A DNA stretch of 54,993 nt, taken from positions 1 through 54,993 of the IMG/VR virus record IMGVR_UViG_2923302340_000009. The stretch is one strand, 5' to 3'. A model generated the notes under the pieces. It was not told the DNA's origin, made no database searches, and worked only from the letters and a program-made list of their open reading frames with translations. Within the stretch, counting starts at the first letter, position 1. The number at the start of each line of letters is the position of its first letter. Source of the stretch: a virus. Taxonomy: Duplodnaviria > Heunggongvirae > Uroviricota > Caudoviricetes. Positions 40,026 through 52,933 of this stretch are shown here, piece by piece. A program made the position numbers and the translations under genes.

Positions 40026-40829
40026 ATGACAGAAAAAGATAACATTGGTAAGTTAATTTGGCATATTGCTTGCGATGAATCTGGCATTGATGGGCAACGT
40101 TTCTACGGCTTTGGCAGTCTGTGGATGAAGTACCAACGCCGTGGGGATTTCTGTCAACTAATCAGAGAACTACGCAGCAAACATGGTTTTTTTGAAGAAA
40201 TAAAATGGCAAAAAGCCCATTCAAAAAGATACTCTGAATTTTATCTTGAGCTGATCGACTTATTCTTTAGAGTTCCTTGGCTAGCTTTTCATTGTATCGT
40301 GGTTGAAAAATCAATAGTAAACAAGGCATTTCATAATGGGGATTATGACCTGGCAAGGAGAAAGCACTTCACAAATCTCATTACCACAAAAATTAGCTCT
40401 GTAATTTCTGCACACCCTGAAAGAGACAGTTACTTCAGGATTGAAGTTGATCCTATCGCATCTCGTTATAAAAAGGCCGATGAAGAACTAAATGTTATTG
40501 CCAATAACATATTGAATAGAAAATTTGGTCGTAAAGGGATAATCAGCAGTGTAGTGACAAAAGACTCTAAAGCATCTGAAAACATTCAGCTAGCCGATTT
40601 TTTCTTAGGTGCGGTTATGTGCGCATATCAAGGAAAAGCTTCATCTGAAGCCAAAATAAGAGTATCAAACTATGTTGCTTCATATTTAGGCTGGGATCAT
40701 TTGCAATATGATACATGGCACACTGAGAGAAAATTTAATATCTGGTATTTTTATGATAAAACTCGAGGGCCACGAGATATAGAAACTCAAAATGTTAGCT
40801 TAAAGTATCCACTTCCCCAAAAGAAATAG
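40026..40829 (+). CDS. DUF3800-like protein (orphan moron, antisense to the late operon)
   Basis: 267 aa, low GC. The motifs HIACDESGIDG, EIKWQKAHS and NIQLADFFLGAV resemble the DUF3800 signature. Family recalled from memory. Confidence 0.55.
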   Translation: MTEKDNIGKLIWHIACDESGIDGQRFYGFGSLWMKYQRRGDFCQLIRELRSKHGFFEEIKWQKAHSKRYSEFYLELIDLFFRVPWLAFHCIVVEKSIVNKAFHNGDYDLARRKHFTNLITTKISSVISAHPERDSYFRIEVDPIASRYKKADEELNVIANNILNRKFGRKGIISSVVTKDSKASENIQLADFFLGAVMCAYQGKASSEAKIRVSNYVASYLGWDHLQYDTWHTERKFNIWYFYDKTRGPRDIETQNVSLKYPLPQKK

Positions 40830-41050: not shown

Positions 41051-41740
41051 TCAATCCAGTTTTGCAATACTTTGCTGTGAAAATGTCGTCTTTTGTTTTG
41101 AACGTGTTCTCGTTACAAGCAATAAAGCTTCGCTATCAAGCTGTAGAAAAATGTGCTTCATTGCAACCCAGCGTTCAGTAAATGTCTCAGACCAGTTTTT
41201 TGATGTCACTCCCACCAGTGATGCCAGCTCCTGGTATTCATAGGTCTTACGCCCTGCCAGCTCATTCTTCACATCCTGTGCCGCCAGCCAGATCAACTTC
41301 TTCAAACGTTCCAGTGTCTTACCTGCAATTTTCCTGGTACCCAACAGAGTCTTAAACTCGCTCCATACCCACTGCGTTATGGTGACCTGATGTTCCCAGC
41401 GAACACTTTCGCTGTAACTCCACAGCAACCACGCTTTCTGATGTTCTTCGAGAGACAGAACCGCGCGGCGCCATGAAGATGTTGAGAACTCAACCTGGCT
41501 GACCAGTGCAATGGATGAACCTTTTGCGTACGACTGCTTACCGGAAATCGGCGGATTATCCAGCGTAATCATCTTGCCCGTTACCTCATCCAGAATGCGC
41601 GGCTTCTTTCGTTTATATGTACCAGTATCAAATTGTGCATGCTCCAGCCAGGCTTCAAGCTGGCCTTTCGTTGCTCCGCTCAAATCAGCAGTAGCCACAA
41701 TGAGTTGCTCGCGGACATACTGTAAATATTGGGTATTCAT
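41051..41740 (-). CDS. Q: late antiterminator Q (DLP12 QuuD / phage-82-like type)
   Basis: 229 aa from the ATG at 41740 (MNTQYLQYVREQLI...) with an AGGAG RBS. It sits between rusA and the lysis genes. Confidence 0.8.
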   Translation of the reverse strand: MNTQYLQYVREQLIVATADLSGATKGQLEAWLEHAQFDTGTYKRKKPRILDEVTGKMITLDNPPISGKQSYAKGSSIALVSQVEFSTSSWRRAVLSLEEHQKAWLLWSYSESVRWEHQVTITQWVWSEFKTLLGTRKIAGKTLERLKKLIWLAAQDVKNELAGRKTYEYQELASLVGVTSKNWSETFTERWVAMKHIFLQLDSEALLLVTRTRSKQKTTFSQQSIAKLD

Positions 41741-41873
41741 GCGGCAGCTCCTTTCAGTGTTTTGGCGTAATTCTTCAGTATTCGGTAATCGGTCAAAACA
41801 GAACCGGGGAAACGATATAAGCGCAGACGCCACCAGCGGTGGCGAAGAAGTTCTGCCATATAAAACTCAAACA

Positions 41874-42523: not shown

Positions 42524-42686
42524 GATTCCTCCTTGCTGCCAGTCGCAACCATTTTTTATCAACCAGGCTGGCGGTATACCCGAGCAGTGTTGGTATTTCG
42601 GATGGCTTCAGCTCAGGTTTACGCTTACGACGATTTGGTACTTTGTAGATGTGTCCGTTCATGACACGAATAAGCGGTGTAGCCAT
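42516..42686 (-). CDS. ninE: NinE
   Basis: 56-aa ORF below the track cutoff, translated by hand: [56 protein letters not shown]. The start overlaps the ybcN stop and the stop overlaps the ybcO start. Confidence 0.85.
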   Translation of the reverse strand: MATPLIRVMNGHIYKVPNRRKRKPELKPSEIPTLLGYTASLVDKKWLRLAARRNHG

Positions 42687-43141
42687 TACGCCTCCTGCTT
42701 GTCGCGCAGCAGCTGGAACTCGCAGCTCTGCGGAATAGTCAGGTGGCAGCCAATATTCATCGCCCAGGCTTCAACCTTACACAGGAAGACATACATCTCT
42801 CCGGTATCAAGATCGGAGGTATGGCGTAACGACTGGATAGTAGTGATTTCGCCGGTTACGACATCAACCAGGTCCTTGGTTTCATAACCGAGGTATGTGT
42901 GTTTGAGAGCATCTTTTACCCAAGCTGGAGTAGCAAACGTTTTACCCCTGCTGATGAGGTACTCACTAATTTCGCTGTACCACATGTGGCTAAGTGCATT
43001 CTGGGAAAGACTGCGTCTCTTGCGCCACGGTTTAAGCACCATGCGAAAGCATTTGCCTTCCTCCAGATAAGGCTGGATCTGCTGGCCGATAGCGGTGAAG
43101 TTGCCGCGATGTAATTTGATGCCGTCTTGTGAGAGGTTCAC
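42686..43141 (-). CDS. ybcN: YbcN (NinB-position DNA-binding protein)
   Basis: 151 aa, [38 protein letters not shown], matching DLP12 YbcN. Confidence 0.9.
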
Positions 43142-43328
43142 GCTTCACCTCCGCAGAGGTCAAACGCTAGATGCAAAGAATTGCAGGTGCATTTCTGCAT
43201 CTGTGAAGGGAGAAGAGAGTTTGGATTGTATGTGCGCATAAACGTCCCCGTTTAGCGCAGAAGTCACCGGAGTTGTTCAGGCTCCGATGACATGATTATG
43301 GCTAATAGCTTAGTTTTTATCAATTGTA

Positions 43329-44639
43329 CTATGGATTAGAGAGTGAATCTGGATGTGGTATTTCAGCCATGACCTCCTCTGCATCACAGTTGTCGATAAA
43401 AAAGTATAAAGTTGAGTCAACAATTTTTAAACGCCTGGTACCTTGATCATAATCGAATAATGGCGGAACGATATTCTGATTTGTTTGAAGTATAGGCAAT
43501 CGCTTCAGTGTCCCTGTTACATCAGAAGTTCTGACGTTATCAGGATGAGTATGTATTTCTTTAATAAGTTCCTGTAGAGTCTTTCTCTCAATCCCATCCT
43601 TGAGCTCAGAATAAGTTCTACTTAACAGAACTTGAACTAAATAATACTGAAGATACAAAGCCACAGCCTCTTCACTTGGCCTGCGACTTCGACTCCCTGC
43701 GGCAATTGACTCAAGACTACGGACATGTCTTGACGAATAATCTGCAACCTTAACGTCAATTGCTCTTTGTAGAACGGCCATATCACTCAAATAAACTACT
43801 TCTTGTTGGACCATTCGTATTCCTGACAATTCACAAAGTTGCTTAAGAAGCTCTTGCACTACTGCAACACTTCCATGGGCCTCTTCAAATATACGCTCTT
43901 TAATTTGCTCTGAAATAGATATATTTAAACACTGCTCGCCAACTGTAGCGATTCTTGAAAAGTCACCTTTATCCCATGGCTCAACAGGAACCTCAGCCAT
44001 ACGGTCCTGTAAGTCGCCATTAAACTGAATAAGACGATTATTTTCTCTCCATACTCCGAGTATGATAAATCTAATACCCATTTCTTCAAATGTACGAAGA
44101 TCAAATGCCAACTGTCCTTGAACTTCAACAGAGAGATAATGAAAGTTTTCGAGAACGAAGAACTTATCCTTCCCGCCAACATTAATCAATAATTCTCCTA
44201 CATCTTGTGCCGCCGTCAAGTTGAACTCAATCGGCCTAGATTTTGTTTCTGTATTTTTGGATATCGTCCCTTCAACCCCCGCCTCTACTTCAGTTTTTGC
44301 TAAAAATGGCAGGATGGCAGAAAAAGTGCTTTTTAAAGACGCTGAAGCCTCCTTAGAGTTACCTGTTGTTCTCTCGGTAATAATTTCCACTCCAAAGTGA
44401 CGTAAAAATGTACGATAGATATCTTCCGCAGAATTGGTGGGACCACAATGATATGTAACCCTGCTGTTTTCATCTAAATGGCGCTGAAGTAAGGCTGTTT
44501 TCCCTTGTTTTGATGAGCCATAAATCACGATCTGCTTCGTCGTTGCAAGTGCATCAGCAAGTGCCTGATCGACCTTTTCACGTTCAATATAGCTGGCTAC
44601 CGGATCTCTTGATACTCCGAATACATTATTTAGATGCAT
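43329..44639 (-). CDS. orphan P-loop ATPase (AAA/Arch-ATPase-like) with alpha-helical C-terminal half
   Basis: 436 aa. Walker A is GSSKQGKT and the Walker-B-like motif is FFVLENFHYL. It is low in GC and flanked by non-coding DNA on both sides. Confidence 0.7.
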   Translation of the reverse strand: MHLNNVFGVSRDPVASYIEREKVDQALADALATTKQIVIYGSSKQGKTALLQRHLDENSRVTYHCGPTNSAEDIYRTFLRHFGVEIITERTTGNSKEASASLKSTFSAILPFLAKTEVEAGVEGTISKNTETKSRPIEFNLTAAQDVGELLINVGGKDKFFVLENFHYLSVEVQGQLAFDLRTFEEMGIRFIILGVWRENNRLIQFNGDLQDRMAEVPVEPWDKGDFSRIATVGEQCLNISISEQIKERIFEEAHGSVAVVQELLKQLCELSGIRMVQQEVVYLSDMAVLQRAIDVKVADYSSRHVRSLESIAAGSRSRRPSEEAVALYLQYYLVQVLLSRTYSELKDGIERKTLQELIKEIHTHPDNVRTSDVTGTLKRLPILQTNQNIVPPLFDYDQGTRRLKIVDSTLYFFIDNCDAEEVMAEIPHPDSLSNP

Positions 44640-44830
44640 GGTTCATTTCCTTGTTATAAAAGAAAAATCTTAGCATATTAATACATTAATAACTTCCGCC
44701 CCTTGTTTAACTGTACAATTAATAGACTTTTATGCCTCCTACCCAATGACCGGAAGAATATCCGTAATACCTAGCCCCATTTATCACCTTGTCATGAGTT
44801 GAATCCGAGGTCCGTAGCCTCCCTAGCAAA

Positions 44831-44855
44831 ATAGCCCTCCATTCGGAAGGGCTAT
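44831..44855 (-). terminator. hairpin terminator downstream of emrE
   Basis: atagccctcc-att-c-ggaagggctat has A/T runs on both sides. Confidence 0.6.
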
Positions 44856-45028
44856 TTTTAGATTGTTATAAATCGAGCAGTTTCCCAATGAGTGGAGAGC
44901 ACTAAAATGTCTAAATAGTCATAAGGGCAATATCCAAAATCTCCAACAACAATTGGTAGTCTTATAAATTACTCAGTTCAACATACGGTAGGTGTGTTTC
45001 TAATTGATGAAGTAGCATGGTGCGTTAT

Positions 45029-45361
45029 TTAATGTAGTGCACTTCGTGACAACAAATTAATCACCAACACACCGGCACAAATCAACATCATGCCTATAAT
45101 GGCTGGCAGGTCCAGCCGTTGGCCGAAAAATCCCCATGACAGTAAGCTAATCAGGACAATCCCGACTCCTGACCAGATAGCATAAGCAATCCCTGTAGGA
45201 ATATAAGCCAGCGTCTGAGCTAATAACCAGAATGATGCACAGTAACAAATAATTGTACCAACAGATGGCCATAACCGTGTAAAACCTTCTGAAAACTTCA
45301 TTAAGGTTGTACCAATGACCTCTGCAAGTATTGCACCACCAAGATAAATATAAGGGTTCAT
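45029..45361 (-). CDS. emrE: small multidrug resistance transporter EmrE
   Basis: 110 aa, MNPYIYLGGAILAEVIGTTLMKFSEGFTRLWPSVGTIICYCASFWLLAQTLAYIPTGIAYAIWSG..., matching E. coli EmrE. The position next to ren is the same as in DLP12. Confidence 0.95.
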   Translation of the reverse strand: MNPYIYLGGAILAEVIGTTLMKFSEGFTRLWPSVGTIICYCASFWLLAQTLAYIPTGIAYAIWSGVGIVLISLLSWGFFGQRLDLPAIIGMMLICAGVLVINLLSRSALH

Positions 45362-45428
45362 AGCATATTCTTTCCTGTTCAAACTGGAGAGAATTGTACT
45401 ACAGTTTGAACTCAACTCACCTGTTTCA

Positions 45429-45731
45429 TCATTGTGTTCCCATTGATGTTCTTTTATATACCCTCAATACCCGTTTCATCGCGGCACTCTGGCGACACTC
45501 CTTAAAAATCAGATTCGTGCTCACCTTTCCTTCCCGTTCTTCTCTGGTAGCGAACCGGTAATACACCGTTCGCCAGACCTTACCATCAACGACCAGGATT
45601 CCTGCCCGCGCCATTTTAGCCGCAGCCTGATTTATGCTGGTTACGGTTGCGCCTGTTACCGCGGCAACGTCCTGTGCACAGAAGCTCTTATGCGTCCCCA
45701 GGTAATGAATAATTGCCTCTTTGCCCGTCAT
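45429..45731 (-). CDS. ren: Ren
   Basis: MTGKEAIIHYLGTHKSFCAQDVAAVTGATVTSINQAAAKMARAG matches lambda Ren. Confidence 0.92.
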   Translation of the reverse strand: MTGKEAIIHYLGTHKSFCAQDVAAVTGATVTSINQAAAKMARAGILVVDGKVWRTVYYRFATREEREGKVSTNLIFKECRQSAAMKRVLRVYKRTSMGTQ

Positions 45732-46429
45732 ACACTTGCTCCTTTCAGTCCGAACTTAGCTTTAATTTCTGCGATCTTCGCCAGAGCCTGTGCACGATTT
45801 AGAGGTCTACCGCCCATAACAGGAAGTTGTTTTACTGGTTCAGGTATCGTCTCACCACGGTTAATTCGCGCTGTCATACAGGTCAGTTCATCGGCAGCCT
45901 TGCGCCGTAATTCCGCGTCAGTCAGCGCATTGGCCCGCATGTTCTGGTACAAGTTGGTAACCAACCAGTAATGCGCGTTCGATTTCCACGGATAAGACTC
46001 TGCATCCGGATACAGGCCACGCTTCCGGCAATACTCGTAAACCATATCAACCAGCTCGCTGACGTTTGGCAGCCCGGCGTTAACAGATGCTTCTTCCCGG
46101 CACCAGGCGACAAACTGCCCGGGTGATGGCAGGAATGGTCGATTCTGCCGACGGGCTACGCGCATTCCAGCGTTAACCTGTTCCATTGTGGTGATCCCGT
46201 TTTCCCGGAAAGCCAGAACCCACTGGCAGCGGATTTCGTTCAGTTCATTCTGGTCACGGTTAGCCAGGCTCGCCGGGAAAGTTGCCAGTAACTGGCTGAA
46301 CACACCGTTGATGATCTGCGCTACCTGCTGTACCTGTGGCTTTTCGTCGTACTGTTCCGGCATGTTGTTGGCGATCCGGCGCATCTGCTCACAGTCAAAG
46401 TTAACCATCTGTGCGGCGATGTTTTTCAT
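45728..46429 (-). CDS. P: replication protein P (DnaB loader)
   Basis: 233 aa, MKNIAAQMVNFD.EQMRRIANNMPEQYDEKPQVQQ, matching lambda P. Confidence 0.95.
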   Translation of the reverse strand: MKNIAAQMVNFDCEQMRRIANNMPEQYDEKPQVQQVAQIINGVFSQLLATFPASLANRDQNELNEIRCQWVLAFRENGITTMEQVNAGMRVARRQNRPFLPSPGQFVAWCREEASVNAGLPNVSELVDMVYEYCRKRGLYPDAESYPWKSNAHYWLVTNLYQNMRANALTDAELRRKAADELTCMTARINRGETIPEPVKQLPVMGGRPLNRAQALAKIAEIKAKFGLKGASV

Positions 46430-47355
46430 AGCTCCACCCCGTAAATCCAGTCAGTGTTCGTCAGGTCGAGTTTTGGTTTGCCGGCTGTCACGCCAGCCTG
46501 TTGCTTGTTTCGGTTGATTTCGAGCTGGGTCCACTTGTCGCGGAGTTTGGCCGGACTTAGCACGTTACCGGACCAGAAGTTGTCCTGGCATGCCCAGCGG
46601 AACAGCACGCACATGTCGCGGTGGTTACGTCCGTCACGTTCACGCATCAGGCGGATATCGTTAGCCCACCCTGCAAAATTCGGTTTTCTGGCTGATGGCG
46701 CGATGGTCTTCACCATGTCAAACATCCACTCTGCGGCGGTCAGGTCTTCTGCTGTCCCCCACTTGCTGCCGCTCTGAATTGCAGCATCCGGTTTCACCAC
46801 AGGAAGATCGTTTTCTGGTTGGTCAGAGGATTCGCCAGAATTCTCGGACGAAAAAGGTTTTATATTGTCTTTTGTTAGTTTGTCTTTTGTGTTTACCTGA
46901 TTCGGGTAAACGCCTTTACCTGATTTGGGTAAACTTTTTTTACCTGATTCAGGTAAATTTACCTCTTTCAGGTAAACTTTATTTTTCTTACCTGATTCGG
47001 GTAATGTTGACCATTCACTGACCACATTATTAATGCCGGTATTCCGCCCGCTCTGAATAAAAATCCCACGCTTTACCAGAACACTTTTTGCAGCAGAACA
47101 CTTGTGCGGCAATATCCCGGTTAATTCGGAAAGTTGCTCGTTGCTCACCCAATCCAGTTTTTTATTAAAGCCATATGTTTTGCGCATGACAGCCAGAAAG
47201 ACCAGAAGCTGGTGCTGTGTTAATCCGGCCAGCATCACAGCTTCCAGCAACTCATTTGCAATGCGCGTATAACCATCATCGAGATCTGCCACGCGCGGCT
47301 CCTTTTGTGCCGCATCCGGCACTGGAAAATTGAATATCTCAGCAGTGTTTGCCAT
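46426..47355 (-). CDS. O: replication initiator O-type protein (non-lambda iteron specificity, lambda-like C-terminus)
   Basis: The start MANTAEIFNF follows GGGAGG. The iterons lie inside the gene. The C-terminal P-interacting part is lambda-like. Confidence 0.88.
   Translation of the reverse strand: MANTAEIFNFPVPDAAQKEPRVADLDDGYTRIANELLEAVMLAGLTQHQLLVFLAVMRKTYGFNKKLDWVSNEQLSELTGILPHKCSAAKSVLVKRGIFIQSGRNTGINNVVSEWSTLPESGKKNKVYLKEVNLPESGKKSLPKSGKGVYPNQVNTKDKLTKDNIKPFSSENSGESSDQPENDLPVVKPDAAIQSGSKWGTAEDLTAAEWMFDMVKTIAPSARKPNFAGWANDIRLMRERDGRNHRDMCVLFRWACQDNFWSGNVLSPAKLRDKWTQLEINRNKQQAGVTAGKPKLDLTNTDWIYGVEL
46893..47004. repeat. prophage ori: five 17-bp iterons TTACCTSWTTCRGGTAA followed by an AT-rich tract
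   Basis: The copies lie at 46893-46909, 46916-32, 46940-56, 46959-75 and 46988-47004. The AT-rich stretch at 46857-46890 is adjacent. Confidence 0.88.
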
Positions 47356-47441
47356 AATTCCTCCCGCAATGAGTGTGTTACGATTTGCACCTGAAAGTCG
47401 GTTCTGTTCCAGCAGACCGGCTTTCGCCATTTCTGAACCTG

Positions 47442-47981
47442 TCATATCGCCCCCAGCATGGTAGTAACCATCGCCATCAATGGACCAGCCAGATCTGGGT
47501 CCACACGAAACATCGACACAATACCTTCACTAATTTCCTTCAGTTTCTGGTGGCGTGGTGCGTTGAGAATGACAGCCTGTTTTGCCTCACTGAGTTCCTT
47601 TTCCATTTCAGCCAACCTAGCCATGAAGCTATCCTGCTCAACCAGGTAACCGCGATATTCCAGCGGTAGTACCGCCAGAATTGCCGGGGTCAGTTCACGC
47701 ACGTTATTTCGGTATTTTTCAGAATCGAATTTGTTATCGAGGAAGCGGAACAGCTTCTGGCGTGCACGGCTGACATCATCAGGGAAATCGATGGTGCCGC
47801 CGCCCTGCTCCCGATACTCATTCACAATGAGTGTGGCAACGACATCCTGATTATCTACAGCCGACCAGGCGCGGACGGCATCACGGATTTTTTCGTGGCC
47901 TGGCACCTGTTTTGTTTGAGAACGATTTATCACCGCAGTCGGGCTAAATCCGCTAGTCTGTTGGTATGTAAGTGGTTGCAT
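47442..47981 (-). CDS. YdaT-family protein in the cII position
   Basis: 179 aa. IVNEYREQGGGTIDFP and LTPAILAVLPLEYRGYL resemble Rac YdaT. Confidence 0.7.
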   Translation of the reverse strand: MQPLTYQQTSGFSPTAVINRSQTKQVPGHEKIRDAVRAWSAVDNQDVVATLIVNEYREQGGGTIDFPDDVSRARQKLFRFLDNKFDSEKYRNNVRELTPAILAVLPLEYRGYLVEQDSFMARLAEMEKELSEAKQAVILNAPRHQKLKEISEGIVSMFRVDPDLAGPLMAMVTTMLGAI

Positions 47982-48281: not shown

Positions 48282-48385
48282 AACAACCTCCGTGGTTAAT
48301 TTGAATCAAGATTAAAACTATGGTTGTTTTTAGTCAACAACCATTTTCGCTTGATGGAATAAAACCTTGGTTGTACATTTGGACT
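48282..48385. promoter_or_regulatory. OR/PR/PRM control region
   Basis: A perfect inverted repeat atggttgtt-N7-aacaaccat lies at 48320-48344, with related AACC..GGTT sites at 48283-48300 and 48363-48376. The PR candidate on the minus strand is TTGACT (48332-48337), 17 nt, TAATCT (48309-48314). A possible TACATT -10 lies 7 nt before the cI ATG, which would give a leaderless cI message as in lambda. Confidence 0.65.
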
Positions 48386-49075
48386 ATGAAAACAACACTC
48401 TCAGAAAGACTTAAAGAAGCCAGATTAGCGCGAGGCCTTACACAAAAGGCGCTTGGGGATTTGGTCGGGGTTAGCCAGGCTGCTATTCAGAAAATCGAAA
48501 CAGGGAAAGCTAATCAAACAACTAAAATCGTGGAGATCGCGAACGCTTTGGGTGTGCGCGCAGAATGGTTATCTTCTGGCGTTGGAAATATGTCAGACAG
48601 TACAGTGCAACCAATACAATCAACTGTCAGCCATTCCAAATACTTCAAGATTGACGTTCTTGATATAGAAGTCAGTGCTGGGCCGGGAGTCATCAACCGT
48701 GAGTTTGTAGAAGTTCTACGCTCGGTTGAGTACTCGTTTGACGATGCTCGTCACATGTTCGATGGTAGGAAGGCGGAAAATATCCGCATCATTAACGTGC
48801 GTGGTGACAGCATGTCAGGAACGATCGAACCAGGTGATCTGCTGTTCGTTGATATCACAGTTAAATCTTTCGACGGTGATGGTATCTATGCGTTTCTGTA
48901 CGACGACACAGCCCATGTAAAGCGCCTGCAAATGATGAAGGATAAGCTGCTGGTCATCTCTGATAACAAAAGCTACTCACCGTGGGACCCGATCGAGAAA
49001 GACGAGATGAACCGGGTGTTCATCTTCGGTAAGGTTATTGGGAGCATGCCGCAGACATATAGGAAGCATGGGTAG
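48386..49075 (+). CDS. cI: CI-type prophage repressor (HTH plus S24 LexA-like autopeptidase)
   Basis: 229 aa from MKTTLSERLKEARLARGLTQKALGDLVGVSQAAIQKIE. The C-terminal part carries GDSM...K (VRGDSMSGTIEPGDLLFVD...HVKRL). Confidence 0.9.
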   Translation: MKTTLSERLKEARLARGLTQKALGDLVGVSQAAIQKIETGKANQTTKIVEIANALGVRAEWLSSGVGNMSDSTVQPIQSTVSHSKYFKIDVLDIEVSAGPGVINREFVEVLRSVEYSFDDARHMFDGRKAENIRIINVRGDSMSGTIEPGDLLFVDITVKSFDGDGIYAFLYDDTAHVKRLQMMKDKLLVISDNKSYSPWDPIEKDEMNRVFIFGKVIGSMPQTYRKHG

Positions 49076-51717: not shown

Positions 51718-51872
51718 CGCATCCTCACGATAATATCCGGGTAGGCGCGATCACTTTCGTCTACTCCATTACAAAGCGAGGCTGGGTATTTCCCGGCCTT
51801 TCTGTTATCAGAAATCCACTGAAAGCACAGCGGCTGGCTGAGAAGATAAATAATAAACAGGAGGATATATGA
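51714..51872 (+). CDS. small ORF after exo (lambda orf60a-like N-terminus, shortened)
   Basis: 52 aa, translated by hand: [52 protein letters not shown]. It overlaps the exo stop and, through ATGA, the next gene. Confidence 0.55.
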
Positions 51873-52933
51873 GTCAGGTTGGTAATCATTCATTCGAATT
51901 TCCGGCATCGCAAGGTGTACAGGGTGGTACTGTTACACTCTTCCTTACCATACCAGGAAGATCGCTGGCTCGTTTCCTCGCTTCAGATAATTACGGCCAT
52001 ACACTGGAACGCTCTCAGCGAGAAATTAATCCAAATCGAGTACGAAAATTTTTAAATTATCTCACTAACGCAGACTCAAGAAATGAGCCTTTTATCATTC
52101 CCCCTCTCGTAGGTAACTGTGATTCGAATATAGAATTTGTACCGTTTGGCAACACAAATGTTGGTATAGCCAGAATTCCCCTCGACGCCGAAATAAAACT
52201 TTTTGATGGTCAACATCGTGCAGCTGGCATTGAGATATTTTGCCGAAGCTCCCCATCAACGCTCATGGTTCCCATGATGCTTACAATGAATCTGCCGCTA
52301 AAAACCCGGCAGCAGTTCTTTTCGGACATAAATAACAACGTTTCTAAGCCATCAGCGACCATCAATATGGCGTATAACGGCCGGGATGATATTGCTCAGG
52401 GAATGATATCCTTCCTGACCCAACATACTGTATTTGCCGATATAACCGATTTTGAACACAACGTAGTGCCATTAAAAAGTAATATGTGGGTGAGTTTCAA
52501 GGCACTCACTGATGCAACGTCAAAGTTCGCTAGGAACGGCAATCAACAACTTGAAATGGGATATATAGAATCTGTCTGGGAGGCATGGATTACACTAACT
52601 CAGATTGACTCAATTCGACATGGTGTACACCACGCTACGTACAAGCGCGATTATATTCAGTTCCATGGAGTAATGATTAACGCTTTCGGTTTTGCGGTTC
52701 AACAGATGATGGTTAATCATTCCATCGCAGAAATAACTTCTATGATCGAAAAACTATGTGCAACTACCAGCTCTGCAGAAAGAGAGGATTTTTTTCTGAT
52801 GGATAACTGGGCGGGGATCTGCACGAAAGCCAGCCAGGAAAAACTATCTGTTATTGCCAATGTGGCAGCGCAGAAAGCAGCAGCAAACAGACTGATACAA
52901 GCTTTTACCAAAGGAAGTCTGGAAACAACTTAA
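51869..52933 (+). CDS. DGQHR-domain protein (DndB-like, ParB/Srx fold)
   Basis: 354 aa. The literal motif LFDGQHRAAGIE is preceded by QREINPNRVRKFLNYL. GC is low relative to exo. It has its own terminator. Confidence 0.75.
   Translation: MSQVGNHSFEFPASQGVQGGTVTLFLTIPGRSLARFLASDNYGHTLERSQREINPNRVRKFLNYLTNADSRNEPFIIPPLVGNCDSNIEFVPFGNTNVGIARIPLDAEIKLFDGQHRAAGIEIFCRSSPSTLMVPMMLTMNLPLKTRQQFFSDINNNVSKPSATINMAYNGRDDIAQGMISFLTQHTVFADITDFEHNVVPLKSNMWVSFKALTDATSKFARNGNQQLEMGYIESVWEAWITLTQIDSIRHGVHHATYKRDYIQFHGVMINAFGFAVQQMMVNHSIAEITSMIEKLCATTSSAEREDFFLMDNWAGICTKASQEKLSVIANVAAQKAAANRLIQAFTKGSLETT

Follow-up and report, generated by a model that had tools for sequence, protein, structure and literature searches.

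A rare single-gene AAA+ ATPase cassette in a DLP12-type prophage of Escherichia coli belongs to the candidate defence family PDC-S59

Introduction

What is a P-loop ATPase doing on its own in the cargo slot of a prophage? The question is raised by a 436-aa open reading frame (ORF) at 43329..44639 on the minus strand of a 54,993-nucleotide stretch of viral DNA (hereafter the window), in a lambdoid, DLP12-type prophage of Escherichia coli. The product is 100% identical to the E. coli protein WP_107236128.1 (AVS48983.1), which is annotated there as 'hypothetical protein'. An initial annotation, made from the letters of the window, described a stand-alone P-loop NTPase in a variable prophage slot and considered it a possible defence gene, without being able to assign it to a named system. 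The analysis presented here confirms a stand-alone NTPase, of the AAA+ type, in a prophage cargo hotspot, and supplies the family that was missing. The candidate family was known; its member in this prophage is new.

A sharply bounded cassette with one gene

When the window was compared by blastn with the H10 prophage, which carries a different cargo, homology was found only at 42600-43302 and 45028-45800. The stretch between them, 43303..45027 (minus strand, 1,725 bp), is thus a sharply bounded insert in the ren/emrE-ybcN cargo hotspot, bordered by the 33-aa ORF/ybcN backbone on one side and by the emrE stop codon on the other. It consists of the ATPase gene with 26 bp downstream and 388 bp upstream, and holds no second gene. 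The low GC content noticed at first is confirmed, with values of 0.394 for the cassette and 0.404 for the ATPase ORF (GC3, 0.318), compared to about 0.50 in the ybcN-Q and ren-P-O flanks and 0.508 in the whole window. Another DLP12-type prophage has ylcJ/ybcK and further genes at the same position, in agreement with the proposed DLP12 accessory slot, and the cargo of this slot differs between prophages. It is noted that DUF3800 and DndB-like genes are among the accessory genes of the same prophage.

The gene had been described as flanked by ~390 and ~190 bp of non-coding DNA. The upstream value stands (389 bp, 44640-45028), but the downstream value does not. A conserved backbone ORF of 33 aa at 43138-43239 (102 bp), annotated in RefSeq genomes, lies downstream of the ATPase gene, and only ~89 bp of truly non-coding DNA are left once it is subtracted. 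In the upstream 389 bp there is no Rfam match and no credible small ORF, and the predicted folding is no better than that of shuffled sequences (z = -1.6); a hidden partner in the flanks was rejected on these grounds. The upstream DNA is also not conserved between the window copy and the Klebsiella copy. Just 3' of emrE, at 44835..44850 on the minus strand, an intrinsic-terminator-like hairpin with the extended stem AAAAAUAGCCCUUCC-GAAU-GGAGGGCUAUUUU is predicted to set the ATPase gene apart from emrE transcription. The AT-rich 5' region that follows (44640..44834, minus strand) is presumed to provide the gene's own promoter and ribosome-binding site AAGGAAatgaaccATG. No promoter in this region passed a consensus promoter scan, and the presumption is based on the terminator upstream and on the long upstream gaps at homologous loci.

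A full-length match to PDC-S59

The PADLOC profile HMM PDC-S59 matches the protein with an E value of 1.5e-72 (243 bits), aligning residues 2-414 to profile positions 4-399 of 428, and by this match the ATPase is a full-length member of the family. PDC-S59 is one of 145 phage-defence candidates in PADLOC, has candidate status only, and was flagged through its embedding in, or adjacency to, BREX, DISARM or type I restriction-modification (RM) loci (Payne et al., bioRxiv 10.1101/2024.01.29.577857). The window gene shares with it, besides the full-length match, the single-gene organization and the presence of RM, Hachiman or Thoeris genes beside some homologues, whereas the PDC-S59 entry itself comes without a name, a description of the fold, a mechanism or a phenotype. 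Within PADLOC-DB v2.0.0, which covers systems described up to 2023, the only other matches were two marginal ones to PDC-S01 (E about 0.008-0.01), with none to Avs, Gabija, Septu, PARIS, Lamassu or BREX. PDC-S59 is unmentioned in the literature that was searched, and this protein is undescribed there, including among Orc1/Cdc6 defence proteins. The accessible part of the supplements to the PADLOC paper names PDC-M04 and does not name PDC-S59.

General-purpose libraries gave far less. Searches of Pfam and NCBIfam returned sub-threshold AAA_22, AAA_35, ATPase_2 and nSTAND6 matches at the N-terminus and no dedicated family; the score for ATPase_2 (PF01637), 15.6 bits, lies below the gathering threshold of 33.2. 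The single type of match in PHROGs is a family of unknown function, and the BFVD viral structure library gave generic clamp-loader AAA+ matches only. A single-sequence search of the PDB found nothing meaningful, and the best sequence-level match of a family-profile search was TnsC (E = 6e-4).

At E<=1e-3, 1,980 cluster representatives (50% identity) match the ATPase profile, so that the gene is not a chance ORF; more than 1,483 homologues were obtained in the homologue search. Members are typically ~430 aa long and are distributed patchily over many bacterial phyla and some archaea. Identities of 58-65% across proteobacterial classes, and of at least 40% to archaea, point to a conservation that is unusually high for an immune protein, which speaks against a defence role. 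Fusions to an extra nSTAND3 NTPase or to an alpha/beta hydrolase are rare and occur in distant branches. Considered as Rosetta stones, these fusions, with nSTAND3 and a weakly matching alpha/beta hydrolase as the only partners, were set aside as uninformative for this subfamily.

Domain architecture and ATPase motifs

Structure prediction (pLDDT 89.4 and pTM 0.86 for the second of two models) suggests an AAA+ base, a helical lid and a C-terminal winged helix; all positions below refer to the minus strand. The alpha/beta base domain would span residues ~34-220 (43980..44540). Only five columns are invariant among 77 diverse homologues (23-60% identity), namely G46, K47, L210, R213 and W222. The first two belong to the Walker A motif, or P-loop, GSSKQGKT (residues 41-48, 44496..44519), which is canonical and has the sequence first reported. 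The Walker B-like strand is FFVLENFHYL (residues 160-169, 44133..44162), and its 'DEFQ-like' description is supported by the family profile, which aligns it with 'IIIDEFQHL' of TnsC. Its E164-N165 pair sits at the canonical D-E position, giving hhhhEN in this protein and hhhhE(D/N) across the family, compared to the canonical hhhhDE. Of the 77 homologues, 64 have E and 13 have D at position 164, and 51 have D, 23 N and 3 E at position 165. In both models R213 (44001..44003) lies just ahead of strand 214-218, and the family profile places it at 'GRF' of TnsC.

After strand 2/helix 2, an insertion of ~42 residues (92-133, 44241..44366) is predicted to be disordered, with pLDDT <50 in both models. 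Sequence entropy in the ATPase half peaks in this block, which contains the conserved motif F106-x-A108-x-x-P111, the three named residues being invariant within the close subfamily. The base is followed by the predicted helical lid (residues ~221-272, 43824..43979), with conserved W222 and Q262. The C-terminal half was described initially as helical, and it is mostly helical in the models, with a winged-helix-like domain in addition (residues ~330-417, 43389..43652), to which both the models and the structural alignment point. The models give this domain two helices (352-362 and 371-387) and two wing strands (395-398 and 403-406); Q385 and D408 are at least 90% conserved. The protein as a whole is acidic (pI 5.3) and its winged-helix region neutral (pI 6.9), which lends weak support to DNA binding. 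The counterpart of this domain in STAND proteins has a regulatory role. The ATPase has no domain of the nuclease, NADase, protease or membrane type.

Comparison with known ATPases

Structural alignment superimposes ~290-300 residues of the model onto three-domain PABY2304 (PDB ID: 2qen), SSO1545 (PDB ID: 2fna) and Orc1/Cdc6. PABY2304 and SSO1545 are PF01637-type 'Walker-type ATPases', to which the sequence similarity is marginal (12-14% identity), and the prophage protein departs from their architecture by its disordered insertion, by a linker helix of greater length and by a tail at the C-terminus. We know of no function for either of these two proteins. The archaeal Orc1/Cdc6 proteins (PDB ID: 2qby, 1fnn, 2v1u) have a helical initiator-specific (HEH) insert after strand 2, whereas the prophage ATPase appears to have the disordered loop with short strands instead. 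It further differs from them in having EN rather than DE in Walker B, in that no sensor-2 arginine is evident, and in that its winged helix is not basic. Orc1/Cdc6 genes are origin-linked and essential, whereas this gene is rare mobile cargo; with 3 carriers among 5,426 complete E. coli genomes and 427 among 185,579 species genomes, it does not have the role of an origin-linked replication initiator.

The STAND/NLR-like antiviral ATPases (Avs, bacterial NACHT, NB-ARC) are proteins of 800-2,000 aa with a C-terminal repeat sensor (TPR, WD40 or LRR) and usually an N-terminal effector. The prophage ATPase, with its ~430 aa, lacks both, and its model is closer to Orc1/PF01637 than to NB-ARC. Compared to TnsC, TniB and MuB, it has the extra winged-helix domain and no transposase partner, and its model matches them less well than PABY2304 and Orc1. 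BREX also contains ORC/Cdc6-type ATPases. BrxC has 1,200-1,300 aa and is part of a six-gene system, and BrxD is tightly linked to the BrxHI helicase (PMC12839542). The prophage ATPase, in contrast, matches neither the PADLOC BrxC nor the BrxD profile and has no linked partner.

Rarity, mobility and gene neighbourhoods

The flanking backbone sequence is present in ~2,800 E. coli genomes, compared to the three that carry the cassette, and a tblastn search of 50,697 phage genomes gave no match to the ATPase. The gene is therefore not a housekeeping phage function, an alternative that the initial annotation had named. In Klebsiella prophages it occupies the equivalent slot. Other members of the family adjoin an integrase, lie on conjugative plasmids, or are found in prophages or integrase-flanked islands. 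The ATPase gene is a horizontally mobile, rare single-gene cargo.

In the clustering of neighbours at 80 loci from many phyla, no neighbour family occurred in more than 11 loci and the recurring ones were generic superfamilies. A conserved protein partner was rejected by this result, in line with the absence of a partner gene reported for the window. Around homologues, the gaps have a median of 304 bp on the upstream side and 217 bp on the downstream side, and tight same-strand neighbours were found upstream in 3 and downstream in 5 of 58 loci. The homologue thus appears to be normally an isolated transcription unit. A 359-aa gene overlaps the homologue downstream in Variovorax and was not seen at other loci. 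Co-occurrence with emrE had been suggested as worth checking; the association proved to be positional only, and a functional tie was rejected, there being no SMR neighbour in the Klebsiella prophage copies or in the 80 diverse loci.

Some homologues have defence genes nearby, including Thoeris, NACHT and type IIG RM. Hachiman was found near the homologue in two loci, and OLD/Gabija-type ATPases were also seen. Locus L051 contains Hachiman and a PLD-helicase, and locus L078 a type I RM operon. At the Pseudomonas putida locus, a 190-aa upstream gene looks TIR-like by eye and is likely part of the adjacent Thoeris. Many homologous loci have housekeeping neighbours only, and the association with defence is therefore moderate. 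For the suggested defence role, this means that family membership and the neighbours of some homologues support it, but many loci do not. Abortive infection, the other role named in the initial annotation, found no support.

A proposed ATP-gated switch and its alternatives

A role in inter-phage or anti-phage conflict is most likely for this gene. We propose, with a probability of about one half, that the mobile cassette encodes a self-sufficient, oligomerising AAA+ switch, Orc1/Cdc6-like or PF01637-like, that defends by occupancy and not by catalysis. ATP would be bound through the canonical P-loop. Hydrolysis may be slow or absent because the second acidic residue of Walker B is Asn, and the ATP state would be long-lived. 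It should be mentioned that E164 could still support hydrolysis. ATP-bound protomers could then join into a ring or filament through the invariant R213 acting in trans. Since the protein contains no nuclease, NADase, protease or membrane domain, the output would be occupancy or sequestration, in which the winged helix and the flexible insertion may engage DNA as it invades or replicates, or a universal factor of replication or packaging. As a result, phage replication would be blocked or the cell arrested. Among other PADLOC candidates, 4 of 8 protected E. coli B; PDC-S59 was outside those eight. Extended to the whole of PDC-S59, the proposal becomes one of effector-less immunity, in which an ATP-locked Orc1/Cdc6-like AAA+ protein polymerises via its invariant, putative arginine finger on phage DNA or on a universal replication or packaging factor, and occupancy alone stops infection in hosts as far apart as E. 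coli and methanogenic archaea. The ATP-locked state is put forward because members naturally have Asp or Asn at the catalytic position of Walker B. The fold of a replication initiator would in this way have become an antiviral clamp. This general form is a speculation that we consider unlikely to hold as stated.

The first alternative is a non-defence role, as an ORC-like, ATP-dependent DNA-binding regulator of the element's replication, partition, transcription or maintenance, or of host DNA transactions to the benefit of the element. The predicted fold is shared with replication initiators and with AAA+ regulators that sit on DNA (Orc1/Cdc6, TnsC, MuB), and a conserved molecular target would be in keeping with the high sequence conservation. 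The gene directly follows the replication genes in the E. coli and Klebsiella prophages, the Shewanella plasmid copy adjoins parA/parB, and the Leisingera plasmid copy lies in the repC region. However, almost all related prophages lack the gene, its absence from the phage genomes searched indicates that it is dispensable for the element, homologues occur in non-replicative contexts that include defence islands, and no replication, transposition or partition neighbour is conserved. A regulator of this kind seems improbable to us, though it deserves to be weighed before the others.

Somewhat less probable still is an accessory or sensor component that needs a variable or non-adjacent effector, such as RM, Hachiman, Thoeris or a host nuclease. 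[quoted passage not shown] The rare nSTAND3 and alpha/beta hydrolase fusions may be read in the same way, as may an alpha/beta hydrolase gene directly upstream of the Leisingera plasmid copy. The neighbour counts and the isolated transcription unit found as a rule both argue against it, as does the window, where the gene stands alone between emrE and ybcN. The spread across phyla and archaea also argues against a specific host partner.

A TniB/TnsC-type target-selection ATPase of transposition, or a transposon remnant, is very improbable and was rejected despite the TnsC match in the PDB and weak TniB Pfam matches in 7 of 77 members, because the neighbours include no conserved transposase, genes of a transposase or transposon are missing from the borders of the cassette, and the predicted fold, including the C-terminal winged helix, is clearly nearer to PABY2304 and Orc1/Cdc6.

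Implications

If the cassette protects against phages, an anonymous PADLOC candidate would become a validated single-gene system. Its design would be unusual, that of a bare Orc1/Cdc6-like ATP switch without a nuclease, NADase, protease or membrane effector. The broad horizontal spread, the lack of a partner gene and the strong conservation together hint that the target is universal and the mechanism simple. A system of this kind would lend itself to transfer into other hosts. For E. coli, the cassette adds one further type of cargo to the ren-ninB hotspot of DLP12-like prophages. The defence switch proposed here, if true, would also provide a function for the structurally solved but unexplained PF01637-type ATPases of archaea.

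Location of the ATPase in a cargo slot

The prophage filling the window is of the DLP12 type and lambdoid, and its minus-strand genes run from high to low coordinates as O (46426-47445), P (45728-46429), a ren-like gene (45429-45731), emrE (45029-45415), the 436-aa P-loop ATPase (ORF 43329..44639), a 33-aa ORF (43138-43239), a ybcN/ninB-like gene (42686-43141), ninE, ybcO, rusA, ylcG and Q (41051-41833), with emrE directly before the ATPase. Homology to the prophage of E. coli strain H10 ends at 43302 and restarts at 45028, so the cargo is a sharply bounded 1,725-bp cassette, 43303-45027. The initial annotation had described this slot as one normally carrying ybcK-type genes in DLP12, and H10 indeed holds ylcJ, ybcK, a P22AR fragment and a hypothetical gene there. 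Since further prophages hold other cargo (NGF1 and NC101 a DUF4145 gene with a pol III theta pseudogene, S51 five small unrelated genes), the slot is a true cargo hotspot. The ATPase is carried by 3 of 5,426 complete E. coli genomes, with adjacent backbone sequence present in ~2,800, and no homologue is detectable in 50,697 deposited phage genomes. A housekeeping phage function, named initially as the finding that would speak against defence, is excluded by this distribution.

It is noted that emrE is itself low in GC (0.413). The three ATPase-bearing genomes have the emrE allele WP_096921130.1, and H10 has WP_001070451.1; despite this difference, nucleotide homology to H10 restarts at the emrE stop codon with 97.8% identity.

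The ATPase gene and its flanks

The ORF encodes a Walker A motif, GSSKQGKT (44496-44519), and a Walker B-like motif, FFVLENFHYL (44133-44162), both on the minus strand. Its GC content is 0.404 (GC3 0.318), compared to 0.50 for the ybcN-Q and ren-P-O flanks and 0.508 for the whole window, in agreement with the initial description of a low-GC gene with this Walker A. An E. coli protein 100% identical to it (WP_107236128.1 / AVS48983.1) is annotated just as 'hypothetical protein'.

Both flanks had been regarded as non-coding, which holds upstream but only in part downstream. The 389 bp upstream (44640-45028) match nothing in Rfam, contain no credible small ORF and show ordinary folding (z = -1.6), and a consensus scan detected no promoter for the ATPase. 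Within them, directly 3' of emrE, lies a strong terminator-like hairpin on the minus strand (44835-44850; 44822-44856 with flanks), AAAAAUAGCCCUUCC-GAAU-GGAGGGCUAUUUU, preceded by an A-run and followed by a U-run. As the hairpin belongs to the cassette and not to the backbone, the cassette supplies the emrE terminator. The ~190 bp downstream are partly coding, because the 33-aa ORF (43138-43239, minus strand) sits there; it is annotated in RefSeq as a hypothetical protein, ends with a stop overlapping the ybcN start codon (GTG) and is part of the conserved backbone common to ~2,800 E. coli genomes.

Other accessory genes of the prophage

A 267-aa DUF3800 protein is encoded at 40026-40829 on the plus strand (Pfam 1.2e-10; PADLOC PDC-M04A 7.7e-35; phrog_3732 6e-137). 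The gene lies in the Q-holin moron slot on the opposite strand, has a GC content of 0.36-0.39 and is found in several other E. coli prophages. It is a second defence candidate in this prophage, PDC-M04 being defined as a two-gene cassette. A stand-alone DndB/DGQHR-domain gene (51869-52933, plus strand; Pfam PF14072 3.8e-46; PADLOC DndB 4.3e-37), between the exo/bet recombination genes and an intD-type integrase, is a third, possibly conflict-related, accessory gene; no further dnd genes were seen near it. A YdaT_toxin-domain protein (47442-47981, minus strand; Pfam 8.5e-30) occupies a cII-like position adjoining a small HTH gene, and a LexA/CI-like repressor with HTH and S24 peptidase domains is encoded at 48320-49075 on the plus strand.

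Family membership and distribution

In curated libraries the N-terminal P-loop gives sub-threshold matches to Pfam AAA_22 (24.4 bits, cut-off 27), AAA_35, ATPase_2 and nSTAND6, and NCBIfam gives none. The full-length match is to PDC-S59, a PADLOC-DB phage-defence candidate family (E 1.5e-72, residues 2-414 to profile positions 4-399 of 428). The initial view that it could not be assigned is superseded: although a member of none of the named systems of PADLOC v2.0.0, the ATPase belongs by this profile match to a catalogued candidate family that had already been flagged. The PADLOC authors present PDC families as candidates only, and neither 'PDC-S59' nor the ATPase accessions are mentioned in any paper of the searchable literature. 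In an independent study, four of eight other PADLOC candidates protected E. coli B, so the prior is roughly one half.

A word-indexed search returned >1,483 homologues; almost all have 430-450 aa and no name. Identity to the ATPase is ~80% for enterobacterial copies and 58-65% for those from Pseudomonas, Xanthomonas, Variovorax, Zoogloea, Laribacter and Aeromonas. The family profile, searched exhaustively, matched 1,980 clusters (50% identity) at E<=1e-3 and 309 at E<=1e-30. When one genome per species was scanned, relatives appeared in 427 of 185,579 species, among them Firmicutes, Bacteroidota, Cyanobacteria, Planctomycetota, Verrucomicrobia, Acidobacteriota, Nitrospira, Streptomyces and Methanomassiliicoccales archaea; homologues at the best 80 loci are all at least 39% identical over their full length. 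A family so rare, patchy and well conserved bears the mark of horizontal transfer. Few plasmids carry it (19 of 72,556 records, one a conjugative Shewanella plasmid).

Genomic neighborhoods of the homologues

The ATPase had been described as having no partner gene, and clustering of all ORFs within 6 kb of the homologue in the best 80 loci bears this out. No other ORF family occurs in more than 11 of the 80. The recurrent neighbors belong to generic superfamilies (ABC ATPases, sigma-54 activators, SDRs, histidine kinases, EF-G) whose position and strand vary; integrases recur in eight loci, and resolvases and HsdR in three each. With median gaps of 304 bp upstream and 217 bp downstream, and a tightly coupled same-strand neighbor in only 3/58 loci upstream and 5/58 downstream, the single-gene description is well supported.

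The link to defence and mobile elements in the sampled loci is real but moderate. The 149 nearest neighbors at 40 loci include two complete Hachiman pairs, several OLD/Gabija/PARIS-type ATPases and also many housekeeping genes. A Colwellia MAG (L051, 6890-14598) has HamA-HamB, the PDC-S59 homologue and then a PLD-helicase-DUF3427 gene; this last gene (1,069 aa, PLD nuclease, SNF2/ResIII helicase, DUF3427) is on the opposite strand, and the whole forms a compact defence island. Elsewhere the homologue immediately precedes a complete hsdM-hsdS-hsdR operon (L078), adjoins a type IIG RM gene and a resolvase (Variovorax), abuts a prophage integrase (Xanthomonas) or sits in a phage remnant near smpB (Aeromonas). 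In P. putida an integrase-bearing island has it after a Thoeris ThsA/ThsB cluster, and the product of a 190-aa gene upstream there resembles, by eye, a second TIR protein. In Klebsiella it is found in the corresponding lambdoid-prophage slot and is followed by a NACHT gene, so that this replication-to-ninB slot holds two NTPase-type candidates. The NACHT protein there (L004-L007, 9978-11879) has 633 aa and is encoded ~670 bp 3' of the 80%-identical homologue, on the same strand.

Predicted structure and conserved residues

AlphaFold2 gave a model with pLDDT 78.8 and pTM 0.72 from 39 close homologues, and one of unchanged topology with pLDDT 89.4 and pTM 0.86 from 77 diverse homologues. The predicted chain comprises a 33-residue N-terminal lead, an AAA+ base (~34-220), a helical lid (~221-272), a long linker helix (287-313), a winged-helix-like domain (~330-417) and a short acidic C-terminal tail. 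A disordered insertion after strand 2/helix 2 (92-133) has a conserved F-x-A-x-x-P motif. The ATPase lacks any nuclease, TIR, SIR2, protease, kinase or transmembrane element.

Across the 77 homologues (23-60% identity) only G46, K47, L210, R213 and W222 are invariant, while G41, K44, Q45, F166, H167, Y168, G195, W197, N207, Q262, Q385 and D408 are at least 90% conserved. The second acidic position of a Walker B motif is normally the catalytic glutamate. Here the first position is E in 64 and D in 13 of the 77, and the second is D in 51, N in 23 and E in only three, being always N in the subfamily of the window. We read this pattern as a binding-dominated switch with slow turnover. R213, immediately before strand 5 in the model, is at the position of the arginine finger of ORC/Cdc6-type ATPases as described for BrxD (PMC12839542), which suggests nucleotide-dependent oligomerization.

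Conservation of the C-terminal half depends on the depth of comparison: across the broad family it is far lower than that of the ATPase half (entropy ~3 bits), and in the proteobacterial subfamily the winged helix with its wing hardly varies. The protein is acidic (pI 5.3) and its winged-helix region neutral (pI 6.9), which weakens a simple DNA-coating model.

Proposed function and alternatives

We propose an anti-phage or anti-MGE role, with a probability of roughly 0.5-0.55. The ATPase would be a self-sufficient single-gene conflict module, borne as prophage cargo and built as an ATP-gated, oligomerizing Orc1/Cdc6-like switch. Its output would be occupancy or sequestration rather than catalysis, acting on nucleic acid or on a universal replication/packaging factor; this occupancy mechanism is a tentative and doubtful part of the proposal. 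The ATPase may work like members of the Orc1/Cdc6 clade, although membership is not demonstrable; in contrast to them it has no helical initiator insert, its Walker B is non-canonical and its gene is not origin-linked. It also falls outside the STAND definition, having neither sensor repeats nor an effector.

A non-defence DNA regulator serving its mobile element is an unlikely alternative.

Less likely still is a sensor dependent on a variable partner. In distant branches only, the family has hydrolase and nSTAND3 additions that may act as effectors or sensors. On a Leisingera plasmid (L094, 5520-6551) a homologue of 38% identity has an alpha/beta-hydrolase gene immediately upstream, a weak N-terminal Abhydrolase_6 match is fused to the ATPase module in one distant member (P0243, 669 aa), and two others (P0147, P0151) have an extra N-terminal nSTAND3 NTPase.

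A transposition ATPase is very improbable: TnsC is the best PDB sequence match of the family profile (E 6e-4), the alignment pairing Walker A, '..lE(d/n)FHYL' with 'IIIDEFQHL' (which upholds the DEFQ-like Walker B noted initially) and 'ngDLsgR' with 'NSQLHGR', but with no transposase the ATPase is outside the TniB definition.

As an effector-less, initiator-like ATPase spread across domains of life, the putative defence protein is an attractive and cheap experimental target.
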